Of a stretch of DNA of 64,000 nt, positions 9,039 through 60,239 are shown in pieces (within the stretch, counting starts at the first letter, position 1; the number at the start of each line of letters is the position of its first letter). The notes under the pieces were generated by a model, which saw nothing but the letters and a program-made list of their open reading frames with translations, had not been told where the DNA came from and did no database searches. A program made the translations under genes and the position numbers. This stretch comes from a virus: IMG/VR virus record IMGVR_UViG_3300045988_142718, one strand, 5' to 3'.

Positions 9039-11005
9039 GTAACGAAAAGTCAATGTTACCCAAGGGGTTCGGTATGCCTTTTGTTAAGGTAACAGATTCA
9101 CAGAATAAACCAATCATAGACCCTTTATCGGGATTACCTATAGGTACTTTTGTTACTGGGTTTGAATATACATACCGAGAAGAAAAAGATGATGAATGCT
9201 TTATCACTATCACAACGGAAAATCCTAACCTAATAGATATACCCCAATTCAGAGAACAGCAATATCTGGGAGTACAATGGGGAATCGTTTACCCGGATAA
9301 ATCCTATGCTCCAAGTGCTCCAAGAAAAGTAATGGTAAGGGATACCAACATAAGGTTCTCCGCTCAGGGTATTATCATTACTTTAAAATGTACAGATGGA
9401 TTTTCAATCCTTAAGTCCCAGCAGCTCAAAAAGAATGCTGATGATAATTTTCTCAAATGGATTGAAGACGAGCTAAAGGGAAAGGTTCAATTTAAATCTT
9501 ATATCTATGATGTTAAGGAATCTAAGGAACTTGCTCCTGGGTATGTTTATACTGGTTATTCCTCTATAACAGGGTTAGCCATTCCAACAACAGATCATGG
9601 ATGGTTCTATGGGATGAAGGAAGTTGGGAATGATAAACTTATAAAACGAAGAACATTCGTTCAAGTAGGTAGGACTCCATATACTGCATTAAAGGATGCG
9701 GCAAAGTATATCCCAAATGGTCCATACCATGTAGATGGAAGAGATGATACAGTATCAATCCATCCTACTAATTTCAATCAAGCTCCAGTAGCTTCATTTA
9801 CATGGCATGAAGAAACAGGAGAAATTGTATCATTTAATGTAACCACCAGAAAAAAGCTTAAGGCTTTAGATGTTGCCAAGAAATCTCAAATCGATGGTGA
9901 AACAAAATCCTTAGATTCTGGAGTAACCCAAACAGATGGCTCTTTGCCGGATAATTCAGTAGATGGTATTACTGGAGAAACCATTCCCTCCAATGCTCCC
10001 AACACTTACGATTCTCGAGTAGATGGTATCACAGGAGCTGCAACTAGACCCAGCACAGACAAATATAAAGATGAAGAAGCAACTAAGAAACTCTTAGAGA
10101 AAGACCCTAATTACCTTAGGAAATATGCTCCCGAGTATCTTGAGAAAGTTGTAAATGAATATAAAGCTGCAGGGAATGACCCTATGAAACTAGCTGCTAT
10201 CTCACTGGATAATTATACAGTAAAGGTAAAGGCTAAGGTAAAGGAAACAGTAAACCCCGAAGATTTCAACCCAAAGAGCTCCAGCCCAGTAAAAGTTCAG
10301 GGTAGGATTTCTGGATGGCAATCATTAGAGAGAGATAAAACAATTCAGATAGTCCCAAAAAGTGATGGGTCAAAATATGAATATTGGGATAACCCAGAAG
10401 TAGTTAGAGAAAAGGAAATCGAATTAAATCTCTCTGCTAAGGACCTTTTAGGGTATGCAGGGGATGCGGATTCTTCCAAGATACTCGCATTCAATCAAGT
10501 AAATGATGCTTTACAAAAACAGGTTGAAGCTACAATGGTTACAATTGGGCAACCAACTCTAATGAGTTCCCAGATGCTCTCTATTCAAAATGTTTCTCAA
10601 AAGTACTCTGGAGATTGGTACATTAAAGAAGCTTCTCATAGAATAGATGCCTCCACTGGGTACCTTACTACATTCGAATTAATTAAGAAAACCATTTCAA
10701 ATGGTACAGTGGTTCAATCGGATATAAAAGTAAATACCCAATCCTTAGCAATGAAGGTTCAGAAAATTGCTAATGACCTTACTCCTGCTGAGATTGCTAA
10801 AGCTGAACAAGTAAAGGCATTCCAGGAAAAGATTCTAAAGGAAACCGAAGATATGGGAGAAGTTACAGTAATCACAGGTACTGATGAACAGGGAAGAGAG
10901 TATACCGAGGTACAAGCAAATCAAGATGCAGTATCTTTAAATAAAGCTACTCAGACTGCCAATATTAATAAGAATGATCAAATCCTAAAAGATAAAACAA
11001 AATGA
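9035..11005 (+). CDS. Baseplate hub / late-control gpD-like tail protein
   Basis: 656 aa upstream of the spike gene. The C-terminus YSGDWYIKEASHRIDASTGYLTTFEL resembles gpD family ends. It also has an internal VDGITG repeat. Confidence 0.6.
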   Translation: MSNEKSMLPKGFGMPFVKVTDSQNKPIIDPLSGLPIGTFVTGFEYTYREEKDDECFITITTENPNLIDIPQFREQQYLGVQWGIVYPDKSYAPSAPRKVMVRDTNIRFSAQGIIITLKCTDGFSILKSQQLKKNADDNFLKWIEDELKGKVQFKSYIYDVKESKELAPGYVYTGYSSITGLAIPTTDHGWFYGMKEVGNDKLIKRRTFVQVGRTPYTALKDAAKYIPNGPYHVDGRDDTVSIHPTNFNQAPVASFTWHEETGEIVSFNVTTRKKLKALDVAKKSQIDGETKSLDSGVTQTDGSLPDNSVDGITGETIPSNAPNTYDSRVDGITGAATRPSTDKYKDEEATKKLLEKDPNYLRKYAPEYLEKVVNEYKAAGNDPMKLAAISLDNYTVKVKAKVKETVNPEDFNPKSSSPVKVQGRISGWQSLERDKTIQIVPKSDGSKYEYWDNPEVVREKEIELNLSAKDLLGYAGDADSSKILAFNQVNDALQKQVEATMVTIGQPTLMSSQMLSIQNVSQKYSGDWYIKEASHRIDASTGYLTTFELIKKTISNGTVVQSDIKVNTQSLAMKVQKIANDLTPAEIAKAEQVKAFQEKILKETEDMGEVTVITGTDEQGREYTEVQANQDAVSLNKATQTANINKNDQILKDKTK

Positions 11006-13852: not shown

Positions 13853-14841
13853 TAAACTTTCATGCTTTAATGGATTTACTCCCCTCTTATTTTAAAGCCT
13901 TCGATACTTACAAGGATCAAAATGATAAGGGAGTATTAGAAAGGTTCTTAGAATTAATCGGAGAATCTGTTGTTGATGATACTGATAGGAATTCATCGAT
14001 GTTGCCCAATATAGATAATATCCTTGACATCATCGATGTAGAAACTACCAGAGCGGGATTGCTCGATTATATCTATGATTTTTTAGGGGCTCCTCCACAA
14101 GAATATACTACTCCAGTAACAGAAGGAGAATTTTTACATAATCCTCCATTCTATGTATGGTACTTGGAATACAATGTTCAGTTGGAATATTCTACTAAAC
14201 TGGGATATAAACCAGAGAATGCTCAAAGGGTAGTAAAATACTACTCAGCTATTGACCGAAGGTTGATAAGGTATGTAGTATCCCTATATAAAATCCGAGG
14301 AACAGAAAAGTTCTACAGGGTATTACTTACTGCATATTTTAAACTTAAAGGTTACACATTAGAAGAGGAAAACTTATTAACCACTATCGTTGGTAAAGCA
14401 AGATATGATACATCATTAACATATGATAGCAATTATCAATACGATGGTGATTCCACAGATTGTAAAGCTTGCTCAAGTTACATCATTGATTTAACCTCAG
14501 TAGCCTCAACCCTTAAACCAGAAGAACAAGCTCGATTGGAAAGGGTGCTTGCTAAGTATGCTCCAATTAATGTTCAATTAATGGTTGCTTATGCTTTCTG
14601 TAATATTATCGTAAGTACACAGGGTCCATCCATCGAAGAGGGCATGGTGGTTGTTACTGGTAATACAGATAAAGCAGTAAGAGGATATGATCATACGGTT
14701 AGTATTTATTACGAATCCAATATCATATTCTTGGGCTGGTATGATAACCAAGGAACACTACTCTCTACAAGTTTTTCTTATACATTTAAAGTAACAGAAT
14801 CTACTCAAATCATTGCAAAATATGAAAGAGATGACTTATGA
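13849..14841 (+). CDS. Baseplate/tail protein I-like with a C-terminal B-repeat-like domain
   Basis: It lies after the J-like gene. The C-terminus FLGWYDNQGTLLSTSFSYTFKVTESTQIIAKY matches the repeat unit of the fibre gene. Confidence 0.5.
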   Translation: MINFHALMDLLPSYFKAFDTYKDQNDKGVLERFLELIGESVVDDTDRNSSMLPNIDNILDIIDVETTRAGLLDYIYDFLGAPPQEYTTPVTEGEFLHNPPFYVWYLEYNVQLEYSTKLGYKPENAQRVVKYYSAIDRRLIRYVVSLYKIRGTEKFYRVLLTAYFKLKGYTLEEENLLTTIVGKARYDTSLTYDSNYQYDGDSTDCKACSSYIIDLTSVASTLKPEEQARLERVLAKYAPINVQLMVAYAFCNIIVSTQGPSIEEGMVVVTGNTDKAVRGYDHTVSIYYESNIIFLGWYDNQGTLLSTSFSYTFKVTESTQIIAKYERDDL

Positions 14842-15452
14842 TATTATTACAACAAATTCAGGATATTGATAAACTAACCAAGGTATCTTTAGAACTTGCC
14901 GAAGCAGCATCTAATTATGGAGCATTAAAAATTATCTTTGGTGTCTTCATGGTGATGATGTTATTAATCGTATTGGTATTCGTATCCCAGTCAGTATTTT
15001 TAATCAAAAGGGTTCAAGGGATTTCCGATGTATCCGATAAAATTGATAATTATTTCGAAGGATTATCAGAATCCGATATTGGTAAGGAAGAAGCTAATTC
15101 GATGATTAGGGAAGTTCTAAATCGCAATTCAGTACTTATTAAGTATTATATAATCCGAGTAAGATCCGAGAACCATATTTCTGATAAAGAAAACACAGAA
15201 TTAAAAATTCAAAGGATCCTTAAAAATATCCATTCAGAAACTTCCACATTTTTAAATAAATTTCGATATAAGTCCAAACCTCTGGGAGTATACTTAGATG
15301 TAGAAACGGATACTGAAAATTTATTTAATCTGATGTTAGAGCAAATCTACATACCAAAAGAACATTTTCAATTATCTCAAATGGACCAATCAATCGAATT
15401 ATTTATGCAAGGTTTGAAACTGAATTATGTAACTAAAATAGAAAACTCATGA
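14838..15452 (+). CDS. Single-pass membrane protein (possible lysis accessory)
   Basis: Hydrophobic helix IIFGVFMVMMLLIVLVFVSQSVFLI. The gene overlaps the amidase start. Confidence 0.5.
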   Translation: MILLQQIQDIDKLTKVSLELAEAASNYGALKIIFGVFMVMMLLIVLVFVSQSVFLIKRVQGISDVSDKIDNYFEGLSESDIGKEEANSMIREVLNRNSVLIKYYIIRVRSENHISDKENTELKIQRILKNIHSETSTFLNKFRYKSKPLGVYLDVETDTENLFNLMLEQIYIPKEHFQLSQMDQSIELFMQGLKLNYVTKIENS

Positions 15453-16066
15453 ACACTAAATCATTATGTATTATCTTAGACCCCGCACATGGAAATGATG
15501 TAAAGGGTAAATGCTCTCCAGATGGTACTCACAAAGAATACCTCTGGAGTAGAGAAATTTGTAAAAAACTTGCAAGTAGGTTAGACACAATTGGATACGA
15601 GGTACATTTTACTACCCTAGGTTTAAAAGAACCAGGATTATCTAAACGAAAACTTGAAGCTAACAGTATCCCTACTTCCAATATAAAATTACTTATCTCT
15701 TTACACAATAATGCAGCGGGAGATGGTAGTACTTGGTACACTGCTTCTGGTGTAGAGATTTATACCTCTCCGGGAAAAACTCAATCCGATATCTTCTCTT
15801 CAATGATGTATGGGCAATTAAAAAAGGATTTCCCTAAACTCAAATTTCGATATGGGTCTCCCGATATGCAGGATTGTGATAAGGATGCTAACTTCACAGT
15901 ATTAATGGGAAATTATTATGCCATGCTTATCGAATGGTTATTCCAAGATAACAGAGAAGAGGTAAATATGCTAAAGGATGAAAAGATAAATAATGCCTTC
16001 TGTGAATCCCTGATAAAAGGAATCGAAGATATAAACCAATATGTATATGAACACTTAAAAAAGTAA
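15449..16066 (+). CDS. N-acetylmuramoyl-L-alanine amidase (Amidase_3), endolysin
   Basis: ILDPAHGN, HKEYLWSREI and LLISLHNNA supply the Zn-ligand H/E/H pattern of Amidase_3. Confidence 0.85.
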   Translation: MNTKSLCIILDPAHGNDVKGKCSPDGTHKEYLWSREICKKLASRLDTIGYEVHFTTLGLKEPGLSKRKLEANSIPTSNIKLLISLHNNAAGDGSTWYTASGVEIYTSPGKTQSDIFSSMMYGQLKKDFPKLKFRYGSPDMQDCDKDANFTVLMGNYYAMLIEWLFQDNREEVNMLKDEKINNAFCESLIKGIEDINQYVYEHLKK

Positions 16067-26498: not shown

Positions 26499-26839
26499 AA
26501 AAACTTGAAAAACAGAGAAAAGACCTTTTCAACGAACTGGATTTGTTAAGGGAATTTGAAACAGAATCAATGATTGATTATAATGAGCCTATTGATTGTA
26601 AAGCTGATCAGGAGCTTAGTTTGGTTCCTCGAGGTGCTTGCAAATATTGCACCTTACATTGTGATCAATGCTCTTTGAGATGTAACAGATTCCTTCAATA
26701 TTATAATAGGAATAAGCTTATCTTTTCTAATAATCTGTTCAAGGTTAATCCCAAGTATGAACAGAAGATTAAGGAACAGGTTATTTCTATAGATAAGAAA
26801 ATCAAAATAATCGAATATAACAATGGCAAAGAAGAATAA
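26483..26839 (+). CDS. Hypothetical protein, coiled coil plus Cys cluster
   Basis: Contains CKYCTLHCDQCSLRCNRF. Confidence 0.55.
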   Translation: METELEKLEKQRKDLFNELDLLREFETESMIDYNEPIDCKADQELSLVPRGACKYCTLHCDQCSLRCNRFLQYYNRNKLIFSNNLFKVNPKYEQKIKEQVISIDKKIKIIEYNNGKEE

Positions 26840-27203
26840 ATTACCGGATATTAAAGGAGCTCAGGTTTTAGTTCCCACCAATGTATCAGAGATTATTGGT
26901 ACAAGAGATGATTGCTTTGGCAAAGAATATGACCTCTCTACATCAGAATGTAAAAGATGCGGAGACTCTGAGTTATGTGCAGTATGCTTTGCTCAGTTTA
27001 TGAATAAGACTCGCAAACAGGTAGAAGAAGAAAATACTTTCAAGGATATGGAAAGTATGGTTGATCCTAAACTTGTTGCTAAGTATATGCGGGGATTAAA
27101 AAGAAAAGGGTCAGAGAAAAAAGAAGTAATCCATGCTGCAATGGAAAAGTTTAATCTAGATAAGAAGACTACAAGAACCATTTATAAATCATTAAAGAAG
27201 TAA
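26823..27203 (+). CDS. Hypothetical zinc-ribbon-like protein
   Basis: Contains DDCFGKEYDLSTSECKRCGDSELCAVCF. Confidence 0.55.
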   Translation: MAKKNKLPDIKGAQVLVPTNVSEIIGTRDDCFGKEYDLSTSECKRCGDSELCAVCFAQFMNKTRKQVEEENTFKDMESMVDPKLVAKYMRGLKRKGSEKKEVIHAAMEKFNLDKKTTRTIYKSLKK

Positions 27204-27205: not shown

Positions 27206-28036
27206 ATGGATAGTAGAAACATTAAAGAACCTACTCCTCAAATAGAGGGTGGAAAACATTTGGAGAAAATCTATGATCTCCAAAAAGAATTATTGGATTC
27301 TTACATTAAGATCGAAGGATTGCCTTCATATCCCATAGATGTAAATTCCAAAAAGAGCCAGATCATTCTAAAGGATTTTACTGGTAGGGTAATCGAAGAA
27401 CTTGGAGAGGGATATGAATCTATGCTCAAGGTTTTCAATAAGAGATTAGATTACATAAAGGATATGGATAACAAAGAAACATTCCTTTATATTAAAGCTG
27501 AAGCACAAAACCTAAATGAAGAACTAGCTGATGCTTTACACTTCTTCATGGAATTGCTTATCTACACAAATATTCATCCAGAAGATATTTACCAATACTG
27601 TAAAACAACAGCCAAGAATTTAGGGATTCCCTTATATGATTGCTGTTGCTTAAGACAGGTACTCAACTTTTCCAGAAACATGGTAATGGGATCAGAGATT
27701 GACCTACCCAATAAATCCCTTATCAAAATTGTCCATGAAGAAGATGAATGTATCCCAGTGGGATGGGAAACTAGTGAAGACTTTGTTAGAAGATGTGCAA
27801 TCCAATTATGGGATGTGACATATTCTTTATCTATTGCAAGGAATTGCCTTAAAAACAAGCCATGGAAACAATCCGGAGAATTAACAGATGAAAATCTGTA
27901 TCAGAATTTACTTTGTGAATCATTCGTAAAATTATGCGGATTTTACGCATTAATGGGTTATACAGATAAAACCCTATTTGCAGTATACTTCAAGAAAAAC
28001 ATGGTTAATAAATTTCGTATAGCAAGTCGTTATTGA
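27206..28036 (+). CDS. All-alpha NTP pyrophosphohydrolase (MazG / dimeric dUTPase-dCTPase-like)
   Basis: IEELGEGYES and NEELADALHFFMELLIY form an EExxE...EExxD pair. NKPWKQ lies in the C-terminal half. Confidence 0.6.
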   Translation: MDSRNIKEPTPQIEGGKHLEKIYDLQKELLDSYIKIEGLPSYPIDVNSKKSQIILKDFTGRVIEELGEGYESMLKVFNKRLDYIKDMDNKETFLYIKAEAQNLNEELADALHFFMELLIYTNIHPEDIYQYCKTTAKNLGIPLYDCCCLRQVLNFSRNMVMGSEIDLPNKSLIKIVHEEDECIPVGWETSEDFVRRCAIQLWDVTYSLSIARNCLKNKPWKQSGELTDENLYQNLLCESFVKLCGFYALMGYTDKTLFAVYFKKNMVNKFRIASRY

Positions 28037-28037
28037 T

Positions 28038-28931
28038 ATGGATACAATCAATAAGCAATTAAAAGTAAGGCAAGTATTTTATCCTACCTCCCAAGCTGCT
28101 TGGGAGGGTATTAATGAAATATTTATTAAAGGGGATCCAATTCTTTTTACTGAAGGTGAAGGAGGAAGGATCTCCTCCTCTGCGATTTATGCCTATAATG
28201 TTGTTGTTAATATTAGGAAAGCTTGGATGGACCCAGAATTTGATTTTGGTAAGCTTTTCAATTATCAGAAAACCAAATGGAATCTTCTTTTGAATAATTA
28301 TGTAAACTTTAATCAGTTGGACCTAATGAGATCTCAAGTTAGGTCTACTGAATTAAAGAGAAGCCATTACAATTATTCATTCGACTTTGATAATACACAT
28401 TCTAATGGGAAAGGTTGTTTAATAGCAGCTTCTTTTTGTAGAAGAGATGATTTGGATATTCCAATTATAATTGCAAACTTAAGATCTTCGGAGATTACAA
28501 AGAGATTGGCATTTGACCTTTTATTATTACAGAGATTGGGAGAATATGTATATGGAGAGGACCAAACATTTATGATTCAATTAAACTGTAATCAGATGTA
28601 TGCTGCCTTAGAAACCTTAATAATGTATGATACTCATAAATCGATAAAGAAAGTCACCAAGGGACTCGATTCTGTTTGGATTCAAAAGGTCCTTAAGATG
28701 TTGAAGTTCTTTAAAACTTGTGATGAAAAGGATGTAAAATATAAAGTATATCGAAGAACATTAGCTTGCATACAACCAGGAAAAGTTCCCGGAAAGAAAG
28801 AGATAACCCTTTGTGCTAAGGATTTGCTATTAGGATATGACGATATTCCATACCCGGAATCCTGTATTTCATATACAGCTCGTCAGGCATTTAAAAAGAA
28901 ATATTTAAAACAAAAGGAGGATAAGAAATGA
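28038..28931 (+). CDS. Divergent thymidylate-synthase-fold paralog
   Basis: GKGCLIAASF...IIIANLRSSEITKRLAFDLLLLQRL aligns by eye to TS PCHxxxQF...YQRSxDxxLGxPFNIxxYxLL. Confidence 0.45.
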   Translation: MDTINKQLKVRQVFYPTSQAAWEGINEIFIKGDPILFTEGEGGRISSSAIYAYNVVVNIRKAWMDPEFDFGKLFNYQKTKWNLLLNNYVNFNQLDLMRSQVRSTELKRSHYNYSFDFDNTHSNGKGCLIAASFCRRDDLDIPIIIANLRSSEITKRLAFDLLLLQRLGEYVYGEDQTFMIQLNCNQMYAALETLIMYDTHKSIKKVTKGLDSVWIQKVLKMLKFFKTCDEKDVKYKVYRRTLACIQPGKVPGKKEITLCAKDLLLGYDDIPYPESCISYTARQAFKKKYLKQKEDKK

Positions 28932-29722
28932 GAATCTACACTTCAAGTTATGAATTAATGTCGGAGACTATGCGGAACTGTATTGAGATGGGTTCTATAG
29001 TTAGACCCAAATCTTATCAGAACAAAAACATTGAAGGACAAGAGGATTACATTACAAAAGAAGTAATCTGTCATCAGTACTGTTTAACTTCTTTGGGAGA
29101 CCCAAAATGGTTATTCTTAGCTGATAAAAGGAGTAAACAATGGGTAGAAGAGGAATTCAAGGAAAGAATCCATGATCCTTTAGAGAGCCCAGATAAATTC
29201 TCCCATATTAACCCAGGATCAGCATTCCTTATCAGAGAAGATGTTTGGAGACCATTCTTAGTAAATGGGAAATTCGATTATACCTACAATGAAAGATTAA
29301 GATTTGGATGGACTGATTCTAAAGGAATTAATCACCAAGATCGGATTTGGGATGCTTTAAAAGCAGTAAGGGATGAGTTAATTAGGAACCCAGATACTCG
29401 CCAGGCAGTAATCCCAATCTTTCATCCGACAGATGTAAAATATATTGGAGGAGAAAGAAGAGTACCTTGCTCAATGTATTATGACTTCTTAATCCGAGAA
29501 ATAAAAGGTAAAAAGAGATTACACATCTGTTATCACCAAAGGTCATCCGATTTGGTAACTCATTTTGGTAATGATGTATACCTTGCATGGAAACTTATGG
29601 AGTACATGGCTGAGCAAACAGGGAATGAACCAGGATATTTATATCACACTATCGATTCCCTCCATTCATATAAAAAGGACTGGGTATTACTCAAACAATG
29701 TTTGGATGATATCACAGAATGA
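28928..29722 (+). CDS. Thymidylate synthase family enzyme (dUMP/dCMP C5 methylase or hydroxymethylase)
   Basis: RNPDTRQAVIPIFHP, VPCSMYYDF, ICYHQRSSDLVTHFGNDVYLAWKLM and DSLHSY parallel ThyA NPDSRR, PCH, YQRSCD, PFNIASY and DTHLY. Confidence 0.8.
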   Translation: MRIYTSSYELMSETMRNCIEMGSIVRPKSYQNKNIEGQEDYITKEVICHQYCLTSLGDPKWLFLADKRSKQWVEEEFKERIHDPLESPDKFSHINPGSAFLIREDVWRPFLVNGKFDYTYNERLRFGWTDSKGINHQDRIWDALKAVRDELIRNPDTRQAVIPIFHPTDVKYIGGERRVPCSMYYDFLIREIKGKKRLHICYHQRSSDLVTHFGNDVYLAWKLMEYMAEQTGNEPGYLYHTIDSLHSYKKDWVLLKQCLDDITE

Positions 29723-29803: not shown

Positions 29804-32800
29804 ATGGGCAAACCAAAAACAAAATATCACATCTTGGAGAACGAGCAACAATTAGATATGTTAATTGATGCTTGTAAGAAAACTGGATATGCTTCGGTAG
29901 ACTTTGAGACTACTGGTAATCGAATATATAATAATGATTTTTATCCTACGATTTTAGGGGTATGCTTCGAACCAGGTAGGGCAGGAGTAATCCCTTTAGG
30001 TCATTTCGATTCGAAATTTAAAAAATCCTGGAAAACAAAGCTTCAGAAATTTGGAGAAGAAGTTATTGCTAACGAAAATATTGTTAAGGTTGCATGGAAT
30101 GCTAAATTTGATATGCAAGTATTTCACAAATATGGTATCTTTCATAAAGGTAGGTTATTTGATGGGATGCTTGCTAAATATGTTTTGGATGAGGCTAAGC
30201 CAAATGATCTAAAGTCCATGGTTAGAAGGTTCCTTCCTAAATTTGGAGATTACGAAGAAGATTACGAGGGATGTAATCTACCCTGGGATCAAAAACCTTT
30301 ATTAGGATTATCCCAGTACTGTGCTATAGATACTGATATGTGTTTAAGATTATTCCTATTCTTCGAAAAGAAGATGATGGATAAGAAATTCTATCATCTA
30401 TTCAGAAATCTTATTATGCCAGCTTCTAACCTATTAACAAAGGTAGAGACAAGAGGACAAAGACTTGATAAAGAATGGCATGGGAAATTAATGGGGGAAT
30501 ATCCAAGAAGGATACTAGAAGCAGAAACCAAGGTAAGAGCCCTTAAAAAGGTAAAGAGATTTGAGAAATCCCTCATCCAACAGAGATTGGATAAAGCAAT
30601 ATCGAAGATAGAAGAAGAGATCAGAGAATCTAAGAAAGTAATAAAAACATCAGATGATTCTCGAAAAATTGCTTCTGCTGAAAGGTCAATTAAAAATAGA
30701 GAAGAAAAGATTGCCAGATTAATGGCTGGAGAATTTAATACTAAATCAGAGAAAGCCATAATAGAACCCATAAATTTTGGGTCAGCTTCACAAATGACAC
30801 AACTCCTTTTCACTGATCCAAAAGGATTCAGATTTCCAGTAGTAAAATATACACAAAAAGATAAAAGGGATACCGATAACCCTTCTTCATCAGAAGCAGT
30901 ATTATTGGAATTACAAAAAACAGATAAAACTGGATTTATTGATACGCTTCTAGAATTAAGGGGACTTAAACAGATTAATAATATGTTTGTAAAGGGATTT
31001 GCAAACTTAGTTCAAGATGATGGCAGATTGCATCCAAAATTTAATATTCATGGTACTCGTACAGGGAGATTATCATCAGCAGACCCAAACAGTCAGCAGC
31101 TCCCCAGGGTTGCAACGGATCCAACAATTAGACGTTGTTTGGTTGCATCTCCAGGTAGACTCTATCTAATGATGGATTATAGCCAATGTATAGATGGGGA
31201 TTCTTATATCTTTTGTAATACCGGAATAAAGAAGTTAAAAGAGATTATTCCTGGGAAAGATAAAATTTGTATGATTGACCCCCAGCATAAAAACAAACAC
31301 CGAGTTCTCAATATAAAGGTTCTTGCAAATAAGGGTAAGGCAGAATGCCTAAGGATTACAACAAATACTGGTAGGCAACTGATATTAACAGAAGAACATC
31401 CAGTAAAAACTAAACAAGGATTTACATTAGCTAAAGACCTTAAATTAAATGGTACATTATATATCGAAAACTTATTCGGTACTAAATCTGTTGGTAGGCT
31501 TCTCATAAATTCAGATGAAGCATACATTGCGGGATTATTCTATGGTGATGGTCATTACCCTAAAGAAAAATCTGGTAAAAGAAAACCAACTGATATGTCC
31601 ATATTCTTTTCAACTGGATCGGACAGAGAGGAATTACAACCTTTACTGGATAATTACTTTGGTTGTGAATTCTATGGGCCAAAAAATACTTCAAGGGGTA
31701 TTAGAGGTCATAGTGATAAGGTTCTCTCTTTTTATAAGAAATACCCAAAGAAGGATTCTCATGAAATGGAAATCCCAAAGAGGATCCTAAAGTCGGACTT
31801 CGAATCCAAGATGAATTTTATTGGAGGTCAAATTGACTCAGATGGTTCTATTGGTAATGGTAGGTTTAGGTATACTTCTGCTTGTGAACCTTATATTCGA
31901 CAATTACAACTACTCTTTCAATCAGTTGGGTTTCATGGTATAATCAGAAGTACAACTACGATTTTAAATGAGAATGAGTATACAGAATATCATTTAATCG
32001 TAAATTATGGGTTATCCAGACTTAAGCCCTACTTGAGACTTAAAAGAAAAAAACAAGAAATTATTGATTGGGAATTGAGCAAACAATATGCCGTCCCTGC
32101 AAATAAAACCTCTCACTGTTCCACACAAAGAATACCTTTAGAAATTTATCAAGATTTGCCCAGAACTTCAGAATTTCATAAAACTTATAGGAATTCTTTA
32201 AGAAAGGGTAGACTTATACACAGTACATTAGAAACATATATTGATGAACTTTCTGAACTTGATTCTAGATGGTTGGATGTACATCATTTTATGTATGAGC
32301 AAATTACTAACATAGAAAAGGTTGGTAAACGAGAAGTATACGATATGGAAGTTGAAAACTTACATGAATTTAATCCCAATGGTATCCGGGTTCATAACTG
32401 TGAACTTAGACTAATGGCTCACCTATCAAAATGTAAAGGTTTGTTGGAAGCATTTGCAAAAGGTTGGGATCCTCACTTATCAGTAGCATGTAAAAAATAT
32501 GGAGTAAATTACGATGATATTTATCCAATATATAAAGATGAACAACATCCAGATTATACCACATGGAAAATTCGAAGAAAGCAAGCTAAGCACATTGTTT
32601 TCGGATGTATCTATCATATTGGTGCAGCTAAACTTGCAGAAGAACTTTCAGACCCAAAAACAGGGTTAGTAGTAACACCAAAAGAATCACAGGGATTCTT
32701 GGATGATTTTTTTAAGGACTTCCCAGAAGTAAAGAAGTTCATGGACAATCAGATGAAGTTTATCCATAAGCATGGATACATAAAAACATTATTCGGTAGA

Positions 32801-33307
32801 AAAAGAAGATGCCCAGAGATCTTTGGTGATAATCAGATGCAAATTGTAGCTGCTGAGAATGCCGCAATCAATACCCCATCACAGTCTGCTGCTTCTGATA
32901 TGGCATTGTTTACATCAATCCTAATTGATGAGCTCATTCAAAAAGGAGAATTTCCAGATTTACAAGAAGTAGGTACTGTCCATGACTCCATATATTTTGA
33001 TACATTACCTCAAGACATCAATCCAAAGACCGTATATCAACTTTGGGACATGGCAAGAAATCCCAGTACAAAAGAATGGTTCGGATTCCAAATCGATGAC
33101 ATAGATATGTCAATGGATTTCGAAGTAGGAAGGTCCCAGGGAGAAGAATTACCCTTTGCAGTGGGATATGATTATAATCGATTATTAAATTTCAAAGGGG
33201 AATGGAAAGGGTCCAAGGAAGAAGAATATTATTTTTCACTGGTAAACAAATGTAAATCAGTAGATATCAAGGACTATCCAAAGGTTTACCCAGAGTATTT
33301 CAAGTGA
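29804..33307 (+). CDS. polA: Family A DNA polymerase with 3'-5' exonuclease, intein-interrupted
   Basis: Exo motifs SVDFETTG, NAKFDMQV and YCAIDTD. Motif A is DYSQ|intein|CELRLMAH, motif B is RRKQAKHIVFGCIYHIG and motif C is TVHDS. Confidence 0.9.
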   Translation: MGKPKTKYHILENEQQLDMLIDACKKTGYASVDFETTGNRIYNNDFYPTILGVCFEPGRAGVIPLGHFDSKFKKSWKTKLQKFGEEVIANENIVKVAWNAKFDMQVFHKYGIFHKGRLFDGMLAKYVLDEAKPNDLKSMVRRFLPKFGDYEEDYEGCNLPWDQKPLLGLSQYCAIDTDMCLRLFLFFEKKMMDKKFYHLFRNLIMPASNLLTKVETRGQRLDKEWHGKLMGEYPRRILEAETKVRALKKVKRFEKSLIQQRLDKAISKIEEEIRESKKVIKTSDDSRKIASAERSIKNREEKIARLMAGEFNTKSEKAIIEPINFGSASQMTQLLFTDPKGFRFPVVKYTQKDKRDTDNPSSSEAVLLELQKTDKTGFIDTLLELRGLKQINNMFVKGFANLVQDDGRLHPKFNIHGTRTGRLSSADPNSQQLPRVATDPTIRRCLVASPGRLYLMMDYSQCIDGDSYIFCNTGIKKLKEIIPGKDKICMIDPQHKNKHRVLNIKVLANKGKAECLRITTNTGRQLILTEEHPVKTKQGFTLAKDLKLNGTLYIENLFGTKSVGRLLINSDEAYIAGLFYGDGHYPKEKSGKRKPTDMSIFFSTGSDREELQPLLDNYFGCEFYGPKNTSRGIRGHSDKVLSFYKKYPKKDSHEMEIPKRILKSDFESKMNFIGGQIDSDGSIGNGRFRYTSACEPYIRQLQLLFQSVGFHGIIRSTTTILNENEYTEYHLIVNYGLSRLKPYLRLKRKKQEIIDWELSKQYAVPANKTSHCSTQRIPLEIYQDLPRTSEFHKTYRNSLRKGRLIHSTLETYIDELSELDSRWLDVHHFMYEQITNIEKVGKREVYDMEVENLHEFNPNGIRVHNCELRLMAHLSKCKGLLEAFAKGWDPHLSVACKKYGVNYDDIYPIYKDEQHPDYTTWKIRRKQAKHIVFGCIYHIGAAKLAEELSDPKTGLVVTPKESQGFLDDFFKDFPEVKKFMDNQMKFIHKHGYIKTLFGRKRRCPEIFGDNQMQIVAAENAAINTPSQSAASDMALFTSILIDELIQKGEFPDLQEVGTVHDSIYFDTLPQDINPKTVYQLWDMARNPSTKEWFGFQIDDIDMSMDFEVGRSQGEELPFAVGYDYNRLLNFKGEWKGSKEEEYYFSLVNKCKSVDIKDYPKVYPEYFK
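31187..32398 (+). mobile_element. Class 1 intein with LAGLIDADG homing endonuclease in Pol A motif A
   Basis: 404 codons. It starts CIDGDSYIF, has block B LILTEEHPV and ends GIRVHN, followed by Cys+1. LAGLIDADG boxes are YIAGLFYGDGHY and FIGGQIDSDGSI. Excision restores DYSQ-CELR. Confidence 0.85.
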
Positions 33308-34326: not shown

Positions 34327-34689
34327 ATGAATGTTATTCAGAACTTACTTACTAAAGAAGCTGCATTAAGAGTATCTCAGAATATTCCAGGTACTCCAAC
34401 TGAAGATCGGATCCTTTTAGCAGTACCTAAAGATGATGCAAGGACTGCCAGTGGTTTAATCATTCCAGGTAAACCAGAAGATTATCCCAGAAAAGGGGTA
34501 ATCGTAAAAATGGGATTAATGGAGCAAGACAGAAAGATCAATAAACATTTAGAAATTGGTCAAATCGTTACTTATGGGAATTACGCTGGAAAGGATATTT
34601 CTTTCGATAATGGATATTCTTTAGAATCCGTTAAATTTGTGGTACTCTCAATTGAAGAGGTTATCTATATAGAACAAAACAATCATTAA
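34327..34689 (+). CDS. groES: Co-chaperonin GroES/Cpn10-like
   Basis: DRILLAVPKDDARTASGLIIPGKPEDYPRKGVIVKMG and IGQIVTYGNYAG...VVLSIEEVIYI parallel GroES DRVIVK..KSAGGIVL..G.V.AVG and VGD.V....Y. Confidence 0.75.
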   Translation: MNVIQNLLTKEAALRVSQNIPGTPTEDRILLAVPKDDARTASGLIIPGKPEDYPRKGVIVKMGLMEQDRKINKHLEIGQIVTYGNYAGKDISFDNGYSLESVKFVVLSIEEVIYIEQNNH

Positions 34690-35573: not shown

Positions 35574-37847
35574 ATGGCAAAGAAAGTAAAGATAGGGATA
35601 AAGGTCCCAACATCCAGCGAGCTTAATAGAAGGTATGGGAATTTATTAATTAATCCCAGTACACAAGAAAGACCCAAGTTATGGTTACCCTCAAGATTCT
35701 TAGCTTTAAATTATCAGTATGGTGGAGGAATCCCTTTTGGTAAGATACTGGAAGTCATGGGCCAAGAATCAAGTGGGAAAGCAGTTCCTTTGGATTCTCC
35801 AGTTTTAACCCCTACTGGATATAAATTAATGGGAGAATTATCTCTATCAGATAAAGTAATGGACCCAGTTTCTGGGGATCCAATCTCCATTATTGGAATA
35901 TACCCTCAAGGGTTAAAACGAGTATACAAGGTTACATTTAGAGATGGTGCTTCAGCAGAATGCTCAGAGGATCATTTATGGGAAGTACAATTCAGATCTC
36001 ACAATCAGTATAAGTCTCAAGTATTAACCCTAAAAGAGATTTTAGAAAAAGGGTACAGAACAAAAAGGGCTTCTGGTAAAGGTAAATTTAAATATAAATA
36101 TAACATACCAAGTACCATACCGTTAAACTTTGAAAAAAAAGAGTTACCCATTCATCCATATATATTGGGATACATATTAGGTGATGGAGGTTTAGGTAGA
36201 GCAAATTATATTATGTTTAATATTGGATTAGAAGATGCTGATTCATTTAAACATAATATTTCTAAGTTCCTTAAAGAAGGGGCTGAATTAGAAGATAAGG
36301 GCATCTATGAAAATCCATTTGGGAAAACTCATAGATTTATCTTAAAGGGGTATTCAAAGGAAATAAGATCCTTATGCTTAGAGGGGAAATTATCCTCAGA
36401 TAAGTTTATCCCGGAAGATTACCTTTGGTCTTCAGTAGAAGATAGGAAGTACTTATTATCGGGATTACTTGATTCTGATGGTACTATTGGTGAACAGCAC
36501 AATCGAGCAAAATACTCCTCACGATTTAAGTTCTCATCCACTTCTTCAAAGATGATAAAACAGTTAGTACAAGTAGTACGATCACTTGGGGGATTTATAA
36601 CAGAACCAAAATCGAAGGTTCGAGAACGTCAGTTCGAGGGTTATGAAAAAAGAATTTCAAAGGAGATTAGAACTGGAGGTAGATTGCCATTTAATCCATT
36701 CATGTTAGAGAGAAAAAGAAAACAGTATCAAGTAAAAATAGAGAACCAAACCAAATCCGCTAATTATAGAAGGTCCATTATCGATATCTCATATATTGGT
36801 AAAAAAGAATGTCAATGTATAAAGGTAAGTTCTGAAAGAGGGTTATTCATGTTGAATGATTTCATTGTTACTCATAATACTCTGGTAGCTTATGACTTTG
36901 CATATTGTACCCAACAATTGGGAGGCCATGTTATTTGGGTTGATGCCGAGCAATCTTGGGATAATTCATGGGCAGAACAAAACGGAATAGAATTGGATAA
37001 AGTTACAATCATCAGTTCAACCGAGATAGAAACAATTTCTGATGCTATTGCCGATTTATCCATTCTATGGAGAAGCAAGTTAACTCATAATGAACCAATC
37101 CTTCTAGTAGTGGATTCTATAGCTGCTATGGACTGTACAGAAAACATTAATATAAAAATGACCGATTGTAAAGCCGAGATGGGGGGCAGAGCTAAGGCAT
37201 TGTATAAAATGTTTAGGATCAGAACAGAACTTCTCTCTAAGCTGGGCATCACTCAAATTTATATCAATCAATTAAGGGTAGCTTTAAATGTGGGATTTGG
37301 TCAAGATAACACTACTTCAACTGGAGGGAAAGCTCTTGGATTCTATGCTTCTATCCGTTCTGCATTTTATGCTGGAAAACAAGTTACTAAAAAGGTAAAG
37401 GGTAAAGAAAGAAAGGTAGGGAAGTTAGTAAGTATACGCCCAATTAAGAACAAGGTATCACCCTTGAGGAATACAATCTCTAAAGCTCCCATATATTTCA
37501 ATCCAAAATACGTTGAATATGTGGGTTTTGATAGATATCATGGATTTGCAGATATTCTGGTTGAAGAAGACGTATTGGAGAAAACCTCTGGAGGCATCTA
37601 TAAGTATAAGGGAAAAACAGTTGCAAGAGGTGAAGAGAAATTTCAATCTGTAGTAGAAGAGGATGATAAGCTTAGAAGAAAATTGATTAAAGCTTGTGGA
37701 ATAAACACTATCAGTGTTACCCAGAGTAAAATTGATGAGCTTGTAGAAAAGGGTATAAACCTCTTCCCAGTAGATGGAAATTTGGATTATGAATCTCAAT
37801 CCGATGATTCAGAAGATGAAGAAGAGGAAGAAGAATTCGAAGATTAA
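35574..37847 (+). CDS. recA: RecA-family recombinase, intein-interrupted
   Basis: GGIPFGKILEVMGQESSGK|intein|TLVAYDF. Other RecA motifs are VDAEQS, LLVVDSIAAM, YINQLR, TTSTGGKALGFYASIR and IKNKVSP. The C-terminal tail is acidic. Confidence 0.9.
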   Translation: MAKKVKIGIKVPTSSELNRRYGNLLINPSTQERPKLWLPSRFLALNYQYGGGIPFGKILEVMGQESSGKAVPLDSPVLTPTGYKLMGELSLSDKVMDPVSGDPISIIGIYPQGLKRVYKVTFRDGASAECSEDHLWEVQFRSHNQYKSQVLTLKEILEKGYRTKRASGKGKFKYKYNIPSTIPLNFEKKELPIHPYILGYILGDGGLGRANYIMFNIGLEDADSFKHNISKFLKEGAELEDKGIYENPFGKTHRFILKGYSKEIRSLCLEGKLSSDKFIPEDYLWSSVEDRKYLLSGLLDSDGTIGEQHNRAKYSSRFKFSSTSSKMIKQLVQVVRSLGGFITEPKSKVRERQFEGYEKRISKEIRTGGRLPFNPFMLERKRKQYQVKIENQTKSANYRRSIIDISYIGKKECQCIKVSSERGLFMLNDFIVTHNTLVAYDFAYCTQQLGGHVIWVDAEQSWDNSWAEQNGIELDKVTIISSTEIETISDAIADLSILWRSKLTHNEPILLVVDSIAAMDCTENINIKMTDCKAEMGGRAKALYKMFRIRTELLSKLGITQIYINQLRVALNVGFGQDNTTSTGGKALGFYASIRSAFYAGKQVTKKVKGKERKVGKLVSIRPIKNKVSPLRNTISKAPIYFNPKYVEYVGFDRYHGFADILVEEDVLEKTSGGIYKYKGKTVARGEEKFQSVVEEDDKLRRKLIKACGINTISVTQSKIDELVEKGINLFPVDGNLDYESQSDDSEDEEEEEEFED
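35781..36878 (+). mobile_element. Intein with LAGLIDADG endonuclease in the RecA Walker A loop, with class 3-like signature
   Basis: 366 codons. It starts AVPLDSPVLTPTG (Ala1), has block B GASAECSEDHLW and block F ECQCIKV, and ends IVTHN with Thr+1. LAGLIDADG boxes are YILGYILGDGGL and LLSGLLDSDGTI. Confidence 0.8.
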
Positions 37848-37975: not shown

Positions 37976-38557
37976 ATGAAAAAGAGAGATATTATTATAG
38001 ATAAAGGTATATCTGGTGCTTACTATGCTGATAAGTTTTTACCAGATAACCTACCTGGCTACCCCGGTTATCATATATCCAAGTTCGGCAAAGTTTATAG
38101 TCGATGGGATATCAATGGTAAAGGGGTACTGAGGGTTCGATGGCATTTAAAAAGGCCTCAACCTAACCGGTTAGGTAGGCTATTAGTAGGTATTACGAAT
38201 GGAAAGAAAACTAAGAAATTTCAAGTACATCGATTAGTAGCAATGGTATACATTCCAAATCCCAATAATTATCCAAATGTTTGCCATAAAGATAACAATC
38301 CCCAAAATAATCGTGCAAGTAATCTATATTGGGGAACTCAAAAAATGAACATGAACCAGGCATCACTGGAGGGTAGGATGGTATCCAAGGTAAAGGGGTT
38401 ACCAAAGAAACTTTCTGATTTACAGATCAGTTATATACCAAAATTATTTGAGAGAGGGTTTTCATATAGAGATATCTCTTATATTTTTAACAGAGAAGCT
38501 TCTACTGCTACAATTAAGAGGTGGCATTTTTTGTATATTAAAAAATATGGATTATGA
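37976..38557 (+). mobile_element. Free-standing HNH homing endonuclease gene
   Basis: GYHISKFGKVYS...VHRLVAMVYIPNP...CHKDNNPQNNRASNLYWGTQKMN is HNH_3/NUMOD-type. The gene is inserted between recA and the FEN gene. Confidence 0.85.
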
Positions 38558-39474
38558 TAAAAAGTGAAGACCGGTTGTTATTGGTGGATGGGAATAATGT
38601 TATTTTGAGAGCTTACTTTTCCATGAAGAATAAAGGGTTCTCAAACGGTAAGATTCCAACGGGTGCAGTATATGGGTTCTTTAAAATCCTATACTCAAAC
38701 ATTGTAAGGTTTAAAATCACTTCAGTAGTAGTATGTTTCGACTGTCATAGGTCTAAACTAAGGACTGATATGTACCCAGAGTATAAAGCTCATAGAAAAA
38801 GGATTTCAGAAGATTGGGATCAGATTTTCAAGGTACAGTTTCCCATTATTAAACGTATCTTAAGGAACTTAGGAATTGTTTATGTATGGGATAACAAAAG
38901 GATCAATGAAATGGAAAGTGATGATTATCTTGCATTGCTTTATCAAAAGAATTGCTTATCTCAAGTATACCTATTATCATCAGATGAAGATTTTGTTCAA
39001 CTTCTAGCATTTCCAAATATCAAATTGATAAATCCTTCTAAAGATATGCTAGTAACACCTAAAAATTGTAAAGATGTATATGGGTATACACCAGAACAAG
39101 CAGTGGATATGAAAATCCTATGTGGAGACACATCTGATAACATTTCAGGAATAAAAGGGGTAGGTCCTAAAACTGCTTTAAAATTCTTAGAAGAGTATGG
39201 AAGTATAAGGGAGTTCTTAAAATCTGATCATGGAGATAAGAAATTCCCTAAATCAGAATTAGAACCAATATTCAAACGAAACCAACTGTTGATAGATCTG
39301 TTCTATTATCTAACAAAGGTTAATCCAGAAGTAATCCCATATCATGATAAAAAACATGCAATGGATAAGATTACCTTAAATGAGATATTTGAGAAATATC
39401 AACTCAAATCTTTCATGTCATCAGAATTTATGAAACCATTCAAACAATTAAAAACTTACAAATATGAAGAATAA
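38554..39474 (+). CDS. 5'-3' exonuclease / flap endonuclease (T4 RNase H, T5 D15-like)
   Basis: LLVDGNNVILRAYF at the PIN-like N-terminus and GDTSDNISGIKGVGPKTALKFLEEYGS as the H3TH motif. Confidence 0.85.
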   Translation: MIKSEDRLLLVDGNNVILRAYFSMKNKGFSNGKIPTGAVYGFFKILYSNIVRFKITSVVVCFDCHRSKLRTDMYPEYKAHRKRISEDWDQIFKVQFPIIKRILRNLGIVYVWDNKRINEMESDDYLALLYQKNCLSQVYLLSSDEDFVQLLAFPNIKLINPSKDMLVTPKNCKDVYGYTPEQAVDMKILCGDTSDNISGIKGVGPKTALKFLEEYGSIREFLKSDHGDKKFPKSELEPIFKRNQLLIDLFYYLTKVNPEVIPYHDKKHAMDKITLNEIFEKYQLKSFMSSEFMKPFKQLKTYKYEE

Positions 39475-40174
39475 GAGGATAGTAATCTGTGGTGCAAGTG
39501 GGGTTGGCAAATCAACCATAGCCAGAGCTATTTCAGAGGAGTTTGGAATTAAATATGTTTCTGGGAGTTTATATGATTTAATGCCCAATCTCCCAAAAAA
39601 TCATTATGATTTAAATACCAAGTATGATACCAATGAAAAACACAAAAGGAATTTCCAAATCCTAAACCTAAGGTATCATCAGTATATGGAATTAGAAGGT
39701 AGCTTTGTTACAGATCGTAGTCTGTATGATACTGCGGGTTATGAGATCCAAGAAAATTCCATGGGACTCCCAACCTGTGAAACACATGATTTTATCGAAA
39801 AGATAAATGCTATCAATTATGATCTTATGTTAAAGGAAAAAGAGATAACTCATATTATCTTCATTCCTTACAAAAGAGCTCAATTTGAAAGATGGGAATT
39901 CGAAAACGATGGCAAACGTATTACCAATAAATACTTCCAATACATGGTAAGTGCTTGTCAAACTTTGGTATTCAATGTCATTGGAGTAGAGCAATCTTTT
40001 GGCCAGCTTATCAGAAACATATTCAGTAAAAACAAGGTTGGTACTTTATTTGTACATGATACCGACTGGGAAGTAGAAGACGGATATGATCCAATCGATG
40101 GGATTAAATTCTTAGAATTAAATGAGATGGATCATAATAAACGAATGAAAGCAATTAGAAAGTTTTTAAAATGA
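39464..40174 (+). CDS. P-loop nucleotide kinase (dNMP kinase-like)
   Basis: Walker A in IVICGASGVGKSTIARAI. The size is typical of a small kinase. The substrate cannot be read from the sequence. Confidence 0.5.
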   Translation: MKNKRIVICGASGVGKSTIARAISEEFGIKYVSGSLYDLMPNLPKNHYDLNTKYDTNEKHKRNFQILNLRYHQYMELEGSFVTDRSLYDTAGYEIQENSMGLPTCETHDFIEKINAINYDLMLKEKEITHIIFIPYKRAQFERWEFENDGKRITNKYFQYMVSACQTLVFNVIGVEQSFGQLIRNIFSKNKVGTLFVHDTDWEVEDGYDPIDGIKFLELNEMDHNKRMKAIRKFLK

Positions 40175-59141: not shown

Positions 59142-59149
59142 TAATCATT

Positions 59150-59760: not shown

Positions 59761-60010
59761 ACTATCAAATAGAAGCTATATAACATGGGTATAACACGGG
59801 GGCGAAATTTACTCGATAGCACGAACTATACATACGTATCTCTAAACCATAGAGTTTTCAAGTTTTAAGGCCCTAAAATTTGCATACGTGTTGTGTACAT
59901 TTTTTCGAAAAATTAGGTCTGGGATTTGAGGATTTAGGGCCTTTTTTACCCTAAAACGTCAACTTAGCTCACTTTTAGCACTTTTGACTTTTTTAACCCA
60001 TTTTTTACAA

Positions 60011-60032
60011 ACATATCCAAAACATATCCAAA
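60011..60032 (+). repeat. Tandem 11-mer ACATATCCAAA x2
   Basis: Direct read in the core of the non-coding region. Confidence 0.9.
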
Positions 60033-60239
60033 ACTGTACTTTTTTTCGAGCACAAGTTAAAAATAGCCGGCTTTAGAAAAAAATATCAAACTCTCAACTT
60101 CAAGATTTTAGGATAAATTTTAGGGTTATCTATGGATAAATTAAAATCACAATCGAAGCTAAAAACAATGTCTTTTATTTATTAATCTAGAACATAATAG
60201 AGGGTAATCTTTCTAGTTACTTAGAATTAAAGTAAAATT

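Follow-up and report, generated by a model that had tools for sequence, protein, structure and literature searches.

A candidate deoxycytidylate-modification cassette with a second, diverged thymidylate-synthase-fold protein in a gut phage and its relatives

A coupled three-gene cassette in the replication module

We analysed a 64 kb stretch of viral DNA (IMG/VR record IMGVR_UViG_3300045988_142718; hereafter the window) and focused on three adjacent genes, named P1, P2 and P3, that encode a nucleoside triphosphate (NTP) pyrophosphohydrolase, a strongly diverged protein with a predicted thymidylate synthase (TS) fold and a clearer TS homologue. The window has a GC content of ~33%, and nearly all of its genes are on the + strand. 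The cassette, also on the + strand, sits between the gene of a superfamily 2 (SF2) helicase and the intein-containing gene of a family A DNA polymerase (PolA). P1 covers positions 27206-28036 (276 amino acids (aa); motifs EELGE and EELADALHF), P2 positions 28038-28931 (297 aa; GCLIAASF and LRSSEITKRLAFDLLLL) and P3 positions 28928-29722 (264 aa; NPDTRQ, VPCSMYY, HQRSSDL and DSLHSY). All three open reading frames (ORFs) were present at the exact coordinates given in the initial annotation of the window and contained the motifs quoted there. The stop codon of the ORF upstream ends 2 nt ahead of the P1 ATG, a single nucleotide separates the P1 TGA from the P2 ATG, and the P2 stop and P3 start overlap in the sequence ATGA, with AAAGGAGG immediately upstream. 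The description of the three genes as adjacent and translationally coupled could thus be confirmed.

P1 matched the Pfam family PF08761 (dUTPase_2) with 34.1 bits against a cut-off of 22.9, as well as phrog_12184 (9.5e-22) and phrog_173, which are PHROGs named NTP pyrophosphohydrolase. Aligned with four orthologues, it displayed the conserved motifs ELxExxE, NxExADxxHF and KNKPWKQ and a C-terminal KKNxxNxFR....Y. The dCTPase/dUTPase gp56 of phage T4 scored 25.4 bits on the same Pfam model and aligned with the C-terminal motif of P1 (KN..N..R....Y-end; hhalign E 8e-5), both proteins terminating in a Tyr. By these family and motif matches, P1 belongs to the dimeric dUTPase/dCTPase (gp56) branch of the all-alpha NTP pyrophosphohydrolase superfamily. 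The superfamily assigned initially therefore holds, while the protein is not a MazG proper but a member of the PF08761 branch. A classical trimeric dUTPase was found in 69 of the 94 related loci examined and adjoins P1 in every gene order that could be resolved; that of the related locus L001 belongs to PF00692. The presence of a trimeric dUTPase beside P1 in most loci argues that P1 is not simply the dUTPase of the phage. We predict it to be a pyrophosphatase of deoxycytidine triphosphate (dCTP), possibly also of dUTP, which would supply deoxycytidine monophosphate (dCMP) and remove the canonical dCTP.

The two thymidylate-synthase-fold proteins

P3 was identified as a TS-family protein by Pfam PF00303 (Thymidylat_synt; 56.6 bits against a cut-off of 24.3, E 2.8e-15) and phrog_160 (8e-34), in agreement with its initial assignment. 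Like those of P1, these matches lie well outside what chance would give. It nevertheless missed all eight NCBIfam TS equivalog cut-offs, the best score being 47.6 bits against 174.55. Its residues were mapped with HMMER to the Staphylococcus aureus TS and to the 5-hydroxy-dCMP synthase AfhB, and with MAFFT to Escherichia coli ThyA (a reference verified as identical to PDB 1aob), T4 gp42 and RB69 gp48 (both from GenBank records). In E. coli ThyA numbering, C181 corresponds to the nucleophile Cys146, S182 to His147, Q204-R205-S206 to Gln165-Arg166-Ser167, D208 to Asp169, H212 to Gly173, D216 to Asn177, H246 and Y248 to His207 and Tyr209, and Y120 to Tyr94. All alignments agreed on these equivalences, and the residues are invariant in 39-40 homologues, save for the near-invariant Ser182 and Gln204. 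The pattern of an Arg three residues before the Cys (R178, at Cys-3), Ser/Thr147, Asp169, His173 and Asp177 recurred without exception in the complete P3-clade sequences from the related loci.

The specificity position, which the initial annotation had considered ambiguous (HFGNDVY), thus resolves to Asp, since D216 falls on Asn177/Asp179 in all alignments. The N177D exchange is an established switch of TS from dUMP to dCMP (PMC13326640), and positions 177 and 147 were those that best separated TS genes of modified-cytosine contigs from others in a MetaGPA study (PMC8670742). With D216 at position 177, the predicted substrate of P3 is dCMP, not dUMP.

These residues bear directly on the simplest alternative, in which the cassette supplies ordinary thymidylate: P1 would convert dUTP to dUMP, P3 (or P2) would methylate dUMP to dTMP, and the DNA would be canonical. 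Such a function is implied by the GenBank annotations of cultured relatives ("thymidylate kinase, dUTPase, thymidylate synthase") and by the names of the Pfam models that P1 and P3 match. It would also suit an AT-rich genome with a high demand for dTTP, and neither another TS nor a ThyX was seen in the window. We nevertheless consider it improbable, given the Asp in place of Asn at position 177 of P3 and at its P2 equivalent, the non-His residue at 147, the short C-terminus of P3 described below, the wide margin by which every NCBIfam cut-off is missed, and the separate trimeric dUTPase next to P1 in most relatives. In addition, Asp177 TS genes are strongly enriched on modified-cytosine contigs (PMC8670742; bioRxiv 10.1101/2024.12.05.627091).

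The C-terminal segment of P3 is unusually short for a ThyA, with 16 residues following the Tyr209 equivalent, compared with 55 in E. coli ThyA and 61 in the TS of both phage PaMx74 and Achromobacter phage JWX. Other members of the P3 clade have 7-35 residues after this position, the T4 dCMP hydroxymethylase 28 and the RB69 5-hydroxy-dCMP synthase (gp48) 12. Hydride transfer by TS requires the C-terminus to close over the folate, as known from C-terminal mutants of the Lactobacillus casei and E. coli enzymes, and we therefore read P3 as non-reductive. By sequence, P3 is a member of the TS superfamily set apart from true ThyA enzymes by Asp177, the 16-residue tail and its low equivalog scores, and it is predicted to be a folate-dependent dCMP C5 one-carbon transferase. 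As its product we favour 5-hydroxymethyl-dCMP, to which we give about even weight; a product other than hydroxymethyl or methyl is possible, and a methyl product somewhat less likely still.

An AlphaFold-type model of P3 (predicted local distance difference test (pLDDT) 89.7) had as its best Foldseek match MilA (E 1.6e-15, TM-score 0.72), the cytidine monophosphate (CMP) 5-hydroxymethylase of mildiomycin biosynthesis (PDB 5jnh, 5b6d), which was also the best structural match of P2. MilA is likewise a cytosine-specific TS-fold hydroxymethylase; it differs in belonging to a bacterial antibiotic pathway, in acting on a ribonucleotide and in carrying Asp at the equivalents of both 143 and 177 (PMC13326640). 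It shares 17-19% identity with P3 and 10-12% with P2. The best sequence match of P3 in the PDB was AfhB (9iqu, 1e-8), which was also among the top structural matches of both P2 and P3. AfhB of phage HY126 (PDB 9iqu/9iqc), RB69 gp48 and DLP3 gp80 are flavin-dependent 5-hydroxy-dCMP synthases that resemble P3 in their TS fold, dCMP substrate, Asp177 and short C-terminus. They are marked, however, by a diagnostic D169N exchange (PMC13326640), whereas P3 retains Asp at this position (D208) and P2 has Glu. We therefore rejected a flavin-dependent 5-hydroxylase function for P3. The occurrence of the cassette in anaerobic settings (Clostridium perfringens phages and gut metagenome contigs) would also argue against an O2-dependent hydroxylation.

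P2 is far more elusive at the sequence level. It matched no Pfam family at E <= 1 and no NCBIfam model, its sole family match being a PHROG of unknown function, and because there is no Pfam model, the protein would escape domain-based surveys. Sequence searches against the PDB, with P2 alone or as a 48-sequence profile, returned the SAM domain of SAMHD1 and centrin, which we rejected as chance matches. Relatives are nonetheless numerous: large protein libraries contained 93 close homologues and 222 representative clusters, and a scan of IMG/VR found 535 relatives. No close relative was found in 185,579 bacterial and archaeal genomes, which hence gave no prophage or host clue.

The AlphaFold model of P2 was of high confidence (pLDDT 93.5, predicted TM-score (pTM) 0.91). 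Compared with the PDB by Foldseek, it matched with probability 1.00 MilA (3.4e-5), AfhB (8.6e-5) and the T4 dCMP hydroxymethylase (1.6e-4); the cytosine-specific enzymes as a group had E values of 3e-5 to 5e-4, and ordinary TS followed later at ~1e-2. The TM-scores were modest (0.35-0.52), which points to a strongly remodelled version of the TS fold. Among viral models (BFVD), the matches were uncharacterised gut-phage proteins, then gp48 of Pseudomonas phage PMBT14 (8e-9), then TS and dCMP hydroxymethylases. The modelled structure thus supports the view that P2 adopts a TS fold whose nearest members are the cytosine-specific ones. What had been a guess from motifs is in this way strengthened, and the case of a gene product at 28038 without a TS fold, which the initial annotation had considered, is countered by the model and the Foldseek matches.

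In the hhalign register, C127 of P2 corresponds to the nucleophile Cys146, R149-S150 to Arg166-Ser167, E152 to Asp169, D160 to Asn177 and Y197 to Tyr209. We aligned 13 very distant members of the P2 family (hereafter family X) from gut phages and from Clostridium, Pseudomonas, Yersinia, Brevundimonas, Mycobacterium and Streptomyces phages, and Y88, C127, R149 and D160 were the only residues invariant across them. The Asp169 equivalent is Glu152 in P2 and Tyr in the actinophage members, so the D169N signature is absent here too. Residues of the folate site were not recognisable.

These features leave two opposing views of P2. As a non-catalytic pseudo-enzyme, it would be a structural or regulatory partner, for instance a heterodimer subunit or a scaffold on which a nucleotide-synthesis complex is built. 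Enzymes of the TS family are obligate dimers that share their active sites. P2 is translationally coupled to P3 through the ATGA overlap, always co-occurs with it, has no recognisable folate-site residues and appears to lack the Arg126/Arg127 pair, all of which would fit such a role. It is difficult, on the other hand, to explain without catalysis or specific nucleotide binding why the equivalents of the Cys, of Arg166 and of position 177, together with a Tyr, are the sole invariants among proteins that share very little sequence, and we regard a pseudo-enzyme as unlikely. The invariant nucleophile and phosphate-binding Arg, with the cytosine form of position 177 and the Tyr, argue instead for catalysis or for specific binding of a cytosine nucleotide, and against a purely structural paralogue. 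From this residue pattern we infer that P2 may catalyse a reaction on a cytosine nucleotide, most likely together with P3, whose product it would tailor or with which it would form a heterodimer. A bolder version, which we put forward only tentatively, is that family X forms a new catalytic branch of the TS fold with a chemistry not described for the superfamily: it could trap the exocyclic-methylene or hydroxymethyl intermediate of P3 by means of a nucleophile that is neither water nor hydride, or form with P3 the first heterodimeric TS-family enzyme. If so, a cytosine derivative not yet described, and formed at the level of the nucleotide, would be present in its many carriers, among them gut, Clostridium, Pseudomonas, Serratia and Yersinia phages and actinophages such as Muddy. 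A role of P2 as a Cys-assisted dCMP deaminase was set aside, as several relatives encode both P2 and a zinc-type deaminase.

No informative domain fusion was found in ten longer family X proteins, their extensions being low-complexity tails. Some relatives contain two tandem P2 paralogues (5968-7735 in L001, 6976-8798 in the related locus L003). In the first of the two, the SE motif is followed by TR rather than KR, and the C-terminal tail is long and acidic; the tail of P2 in the window is basic (KKKYLKQKEDKK). GenBank names for the family are inconsistent. The member in Clostridium phage CPAS-15 (L009, 5208-5957) is called "colanic acid biosynthesis glycosyltransferase WcaC", which is almost certainly wrong, and "pyrimidine hmase synthase" is used in two records (Yersinia phage P744, L099, 4992-5825, and one spring-water contig), while "hypothetical protein" is used elsewhere. 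The "pyrimidine hmase synthase" labels suggest that some annotation pipelines had sensed the similarity of P2. Our literature search found no experimental work on this protein; the kind of system is already known, and family X is the part for which we found no published description. The initial annotation had regarded a second TS-fold paralogue as unusual. Two TS-fold genes in one phage are not odd in themselves, as T4 carries gene 42 besides td; the unusual feature here is that P2 is part of a separate, uncharacterised TS-fold family.

Gene order in related loci and a candidate pathway

In local searches with hidden Markov models (HMMs), 93 loci gave at least one match, and 84 of these contained all three of P1, P2 and P3; among the loci missing one of the three are contigs that are short or cut off at an end, as well as the reference regions of T4 and RB69. 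The core order is a small Cys-rich protein, an optional trimeric dUTPase, P1, P2 (once or twice), P3 and PolA. A deaminase gene may stand between the Asp177 TS and PolA. In most related loci PolA follows the cassette directly; others have the deaminase or one or two small ORFs in between, and a larger gap was seen in locus L012. The small Cys-rich protein, which precedes the cassette of the window at 26823-27203 (+ strand, 126 aa; CFGK...CKRCGDSELC...CF), had no Pfam, PHROG or NCBIfam match, and a homologue lies directly upstream of the [dUTPase-]P1-P2-P3 genes in almost all related loci, including the distant L003 and L004. It is a conserved neighbour, its membership in the module being uncertain.

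The same arrangement was found in cultured phages, where we refer to the gene at the P2 position as X. Pseudomonas phage PMBT14 has a kinase, an NTP pyrophosphohydrolase, gp48, a TS, a deaminase and PolA. Clostridium phage CPAS-15 has a kinase, a dUTPase_2 protein, "WcaC", a TS, three small ORFs and PolA. In Mycobacterium phage Muddy, the genes run from gp49 (kinase) through gp48 (dUTPase_2), gp47, gp46 (TS) and gp45, which is annotated as a deaminase and carries deaminase motifs, to gp44 (PolA); gp75 to gp80 of Streptomyces phage KimJongPhill follow the same order. Brevundimonas phage Strzyga encodes a P-loop NTPase, an NTP pyrophosphohydrolase, X, a TS, one small ORF and PolA, and Yersinia phage P744 a kinase, a dUTPase, X, a TS, one unrelated ORF, a deaminase and PolA. 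Gordonia phages are also among the cultured carriers. Upstream of the NTP pyrophosphohydrolase gene, and directly so in most of these phages, lies a gene with a kinase or P-loop NTPase annotation, and by the annotated coordinates start and stop codons overlap or are adjacent at most junctions.

The "WcaC" protein of CPAS-15 is a clear member of family X (hhalign probability 97.6, E 3e-12). PMBT14 gp48 and Muddy gp47 are probable members, with E values of ~1e-4, the same Cys/Arg/Asp register and the shared synteny, while X of Strzyga was weak by hhalign (E 0.028) yet displayed the motif. By tblastn, 85 records of cultured phages contained the actinophage type of X and 17 the proteobacterial type, and the neighbouring feature named in most of the listed matches was a gene annotated as thymidylate synthase. 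Every TS gene adjoining X encodes Arg at Cys-3, Ser/Thr147, Asp169, His173 and Asp177, whereas the PaMx74/JWX type has neither this set nor an X gene. Family X is an obligatory neighbour of the P3 clade of TS across very distant phages, and no one-off paralogue.

Two related loci showed deviating arrangements. In the distant carrier L012, the TS-deaminase pair lies 5 kb away from the P1-P2 pair, which indicates that the two pairs are separable sub-units; the PolA of this locus (14647-15936) is fused to a uracil-DNA glycosylase domain. In L001 (MT121964.1), which comes from a related gut phage, the TS-like gene and PolA are separated by genes for an IspD-like cytidylyltransferase and a phosphotransferase of the LicD family (9122-10742), a pair unique among the 94 loci examined, which could attach ribitol-, glycerol- or choline-phosphate, possibly to a hydroxymethyl group on DNA.

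The replacement of a base before replication is one of the main ways in which phages escape restriction and CRISPR, and all pyrimidine routes known to us begin with a TS-fold enzyme. We favour, with moderate confidence, the reading of P1-P2-P3 as a pre-replicative deoxycytidylate-modification cassette of the T4/Xp12 kind. The substrates, the products and the modification of virion DNA in the following pathway are all inferred from the observed or computed folds, family memberships, active-site residues, coupling and synteny. P1 would hydrolyse dCTP to dCMP, depleting the canonical precursor and feeding the next step. Cys181 of P3 would attack C6 of dCMP, and a one-carbon unit from methylene-tetrahydrofolate would be moved to C5. 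The resulting exocyclic methylene intermediate would then be quenched by water to give 5-hydroxymethyl-dCMP, rather than being reduced to a methyl group. A water quench is expected because P3 lacks the C-terminal lid kept by reductive methylases and has a charged Arg near its nucleophile. A P-loop kinase and the nucleoside diphosphate kinase of the host would form the triphosphate, which the adjacent PolA would incorporate. P2 would be a second TS-fold protein, probably catalytic and functionally tied to P3.

The enzyme logic and the protein families are those of the hydroxymethylcytosine pathway of T4 (gp56 dCTPase/dUTPase, gp42 dCMP hydroxymethylase, gp1 deoxynucleoside monophosphate (dNMP) kinase). 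PF08761 and the C-terminal motif are common to gp56 and P1, and the TS fold, Cys nucleophile, Asp169, Asp177, non-His residue at 147 and shortened C-terminus to gp42 and P3; a P-loop kinase gene is present in the window as well. The T4-like pyrimidine-modification module proposed initially, with an NTPase, TS-fold enzymes and a kinase, is supported by the Pfam family shared with gp56, by the fold of P2 and by D216 as the equivalent of Asp177. The systems differ in that the window genes are contiguous and lie beside a family A polymerase, while those of T4 are dispersed and served by a family B polymerase. P3 has Arg at the apparent position of Asp145 in gp42 and, in addition, His173. P2 is without a counterpart in T4, where the other TS-fold protein is the canonical td, and the glucosyltransferase of the T4 pathway was not recognised among the window ORFs scanned.

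The candidate dNMP kinase lies at 39464-40174 (+ strand), where the initial annotation had placed a P-loop kinase. It matched phrog_2107 ("thymidylate kinase", 8.8e-8) and Pfam AAA_28 (30.8 bits, cut-off 27), with weak NCBIfam matches to (d)CMP and adenylate kinases; no homology to the cassette kinases of cultured phages was detected.

A second known system, the 5-methylcytosine (5mC) cassette of the Xp12/PaMx74 type, has in common with the cassette and its relatives an Asp177 TS whose gene neighbours encode an NTP pyrophosphohydrolase, PolA and, in many cases, a protein of the dCMP-deaminase family. This set is typical of modified-cytosine contigs and has been tied to modified cytosine by experiment; PaMx74 is a phage reported to replace C with 5mC (bioRxiv 10.1101/2024.12.05.627091). 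If the window cassette were of this type, P3 would reductively methylate dCMP, 5-methyl-dCMP would replace dC, and where a deaminase is present some 5-methyl-dCTP would be turned into dTTP. The same study found that 5 of 7 deaminase-linked Asp177 TS enzymes tested from such neighbourhoods made 5-methyl-dCMP, and that the linked deaminases, which prefer 5-methyl-dCTP, convert it to dTTP, or 5-hydroxymethyl-dC to 5-hydroxymethyl-dU (bioRxiv 10.1101/2024.12.05.627091). Deaminase genes lie next to or near the TS gene in Muddy (gp45), PMBT14 (gp46), KimJongPhill (gp79), Yersinia phage P744, L004 and L012, and a 5mC system would account for the lack of a separate ThyA or ThyX. The TS enzymes of PaMx74 and JWX, however, keep Gly173, Pro147 and the long, ThyA-like C-terminal segment of 61 residues; a dihydrofolate reductase (DHFR) gene adjoins the TS gene of PaMx74, and in both phages the surroundings are free of a P2-like gene. 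The P3 clade, in contrast, has His173, Ser/Thr147, a tail of 7-35 residues and X as a constant neighbour, with no DHFR seen. A scan of ~50 window ORFs recognised no glycosyltransferase, deaminase, DHFR, ThyX or methyltransferase. We judge a 5mC system to be an unlikely competitor of the hydroxymethylating cassette that we favour.

Several points nevertheless weigh against the latter. The enzymatic results on deaminase-linked TS, cited above, gave mostly the methylated product, and the deaminases carried by many cassette relatives fit the 5-methyl route equally well. The choice between hydroxymethyl and methyl rests on indirect features. The Cys-3 residue of P3 is an invariant Arg, polar and non-acidic, where T4-type hydroxymethylases have Asp or Glu, and its equivalence to Leu143 is blurred by insertions ahead of the Pro-Cys. 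For P2, the sequence link to TS is weak when taken alone (hhalign against P3 and the TS alignment, E ~2e-3, probability 15%), and the Arg126/Arg127 pair appears to be lacking, with no conserved Arg pair at the matching strand, although the loop before the Cys is Lys/Arg-rich in several members. The scanned window ORFs included no recognisable gene for tailoring a hydroxyl group, by glycosyl transfer or otherwise. A literature search on PMBT14, Muddy, Yersinia phage P744 and Serratia phages yielded no report of modified virion DNA in any cassette carrier, and the supplementary files of one paper held no tested TS sequence with the P3 motif. Lastly, restriction sites are under-represented across the window, with observed-to-expected ratios of 0.56 for GATC, 0.50 for CTAG and 0.70 for CATG, no ATGCAT against 11.8 expected, and GCGC and CGCG occurring once or twice each. 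The continued depletion of GATC, CTAG and ATGCAT indicates that the DNA remains under restriction pressure; taken as a sign of modification, site depletion counts neither for nor against it.

What the cassette adds to the known systems is P2, a second protein of TS fold that occurs in strict linkage with a single clade of Asp177 TS enzymes. If P2 is catalytic, it points to a new nucleotide chemistry, and more than 100 cultured phages annotated with "dUTPase, hypothetical protein, thymidylate synthase" may carry a modified cytosine. Among them is Muddy, which has been used in phage therapy against Mycobacterium abscessus. This would bear on the sequencing, cloning, engineering, host-range prediction and immune sensing of the carrier phages, and could provide new enzymes for nucleic-acid biotechnology. 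As cultured carriers exist, the question is directly testable.

Genomic surroundings of the cassette

Genes for the tail sheath, tape measure and baseplate occupy 2.5-19 kb of the window. They are followed by genes for a DnaB-like helicase (20453), a primase (22333) and the SF2 helicase (24243) and, beyond the cassette and PolA, by those for SSB (34704), a RecA/UvsX-like protein (35574-37847), a 5'-3' exonuclease (38554), SbcCD (40171/41148) and RusA (42890). The window belongs to a lytic, contractile-tailed gut phage, and the cassette lies within its replication module. PolA, directly 3' of the cassette (29804-33307, + strand), is the presumed incorporator of the modified nucleotide. It matched Pfam DNA_pol_A (8.9e-65), DNA_pol_A_exo1, Intein_splicing and LAGLIDADG_3.

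The PolA gene is split by an intein with a LAGLIDADG homing-endonuclease domain (approximately aa 469-865), while the polymerases of relatives have 713-772 aa and no intein. The RecA/UvsX-like ORF is likewise enlarged, to 757 aa compared with 377-381 aa in relatives, by an insertion of ~380 aa near its N-terminus with matches to homing-endonuclease and terminase-like PHROGs, probably a second intein. A free-standing HNH endonuclease gene (37976-38557) lies between the RecA-like and 5'-3' exonuclease genes, a position at which L002-L004 have none. With this gene and the two inteins, the replication module is heavily invaded by selfish elements. It also contains a gene for a Cpn10/GroES-like co-chaperonin (34327-34689, Pfam 2.3e-11), which is kept in L002 and L003. 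Finally, a region of ~1.9 kb at 59141-61057 contains no ORF of at least 90 aa and has a GC content down to ~27%; the GC skew is negative at 58-60 kb and the AT skew switches sign past 60 kb. It may contain an origin, serve in regulation or mark a genome end.

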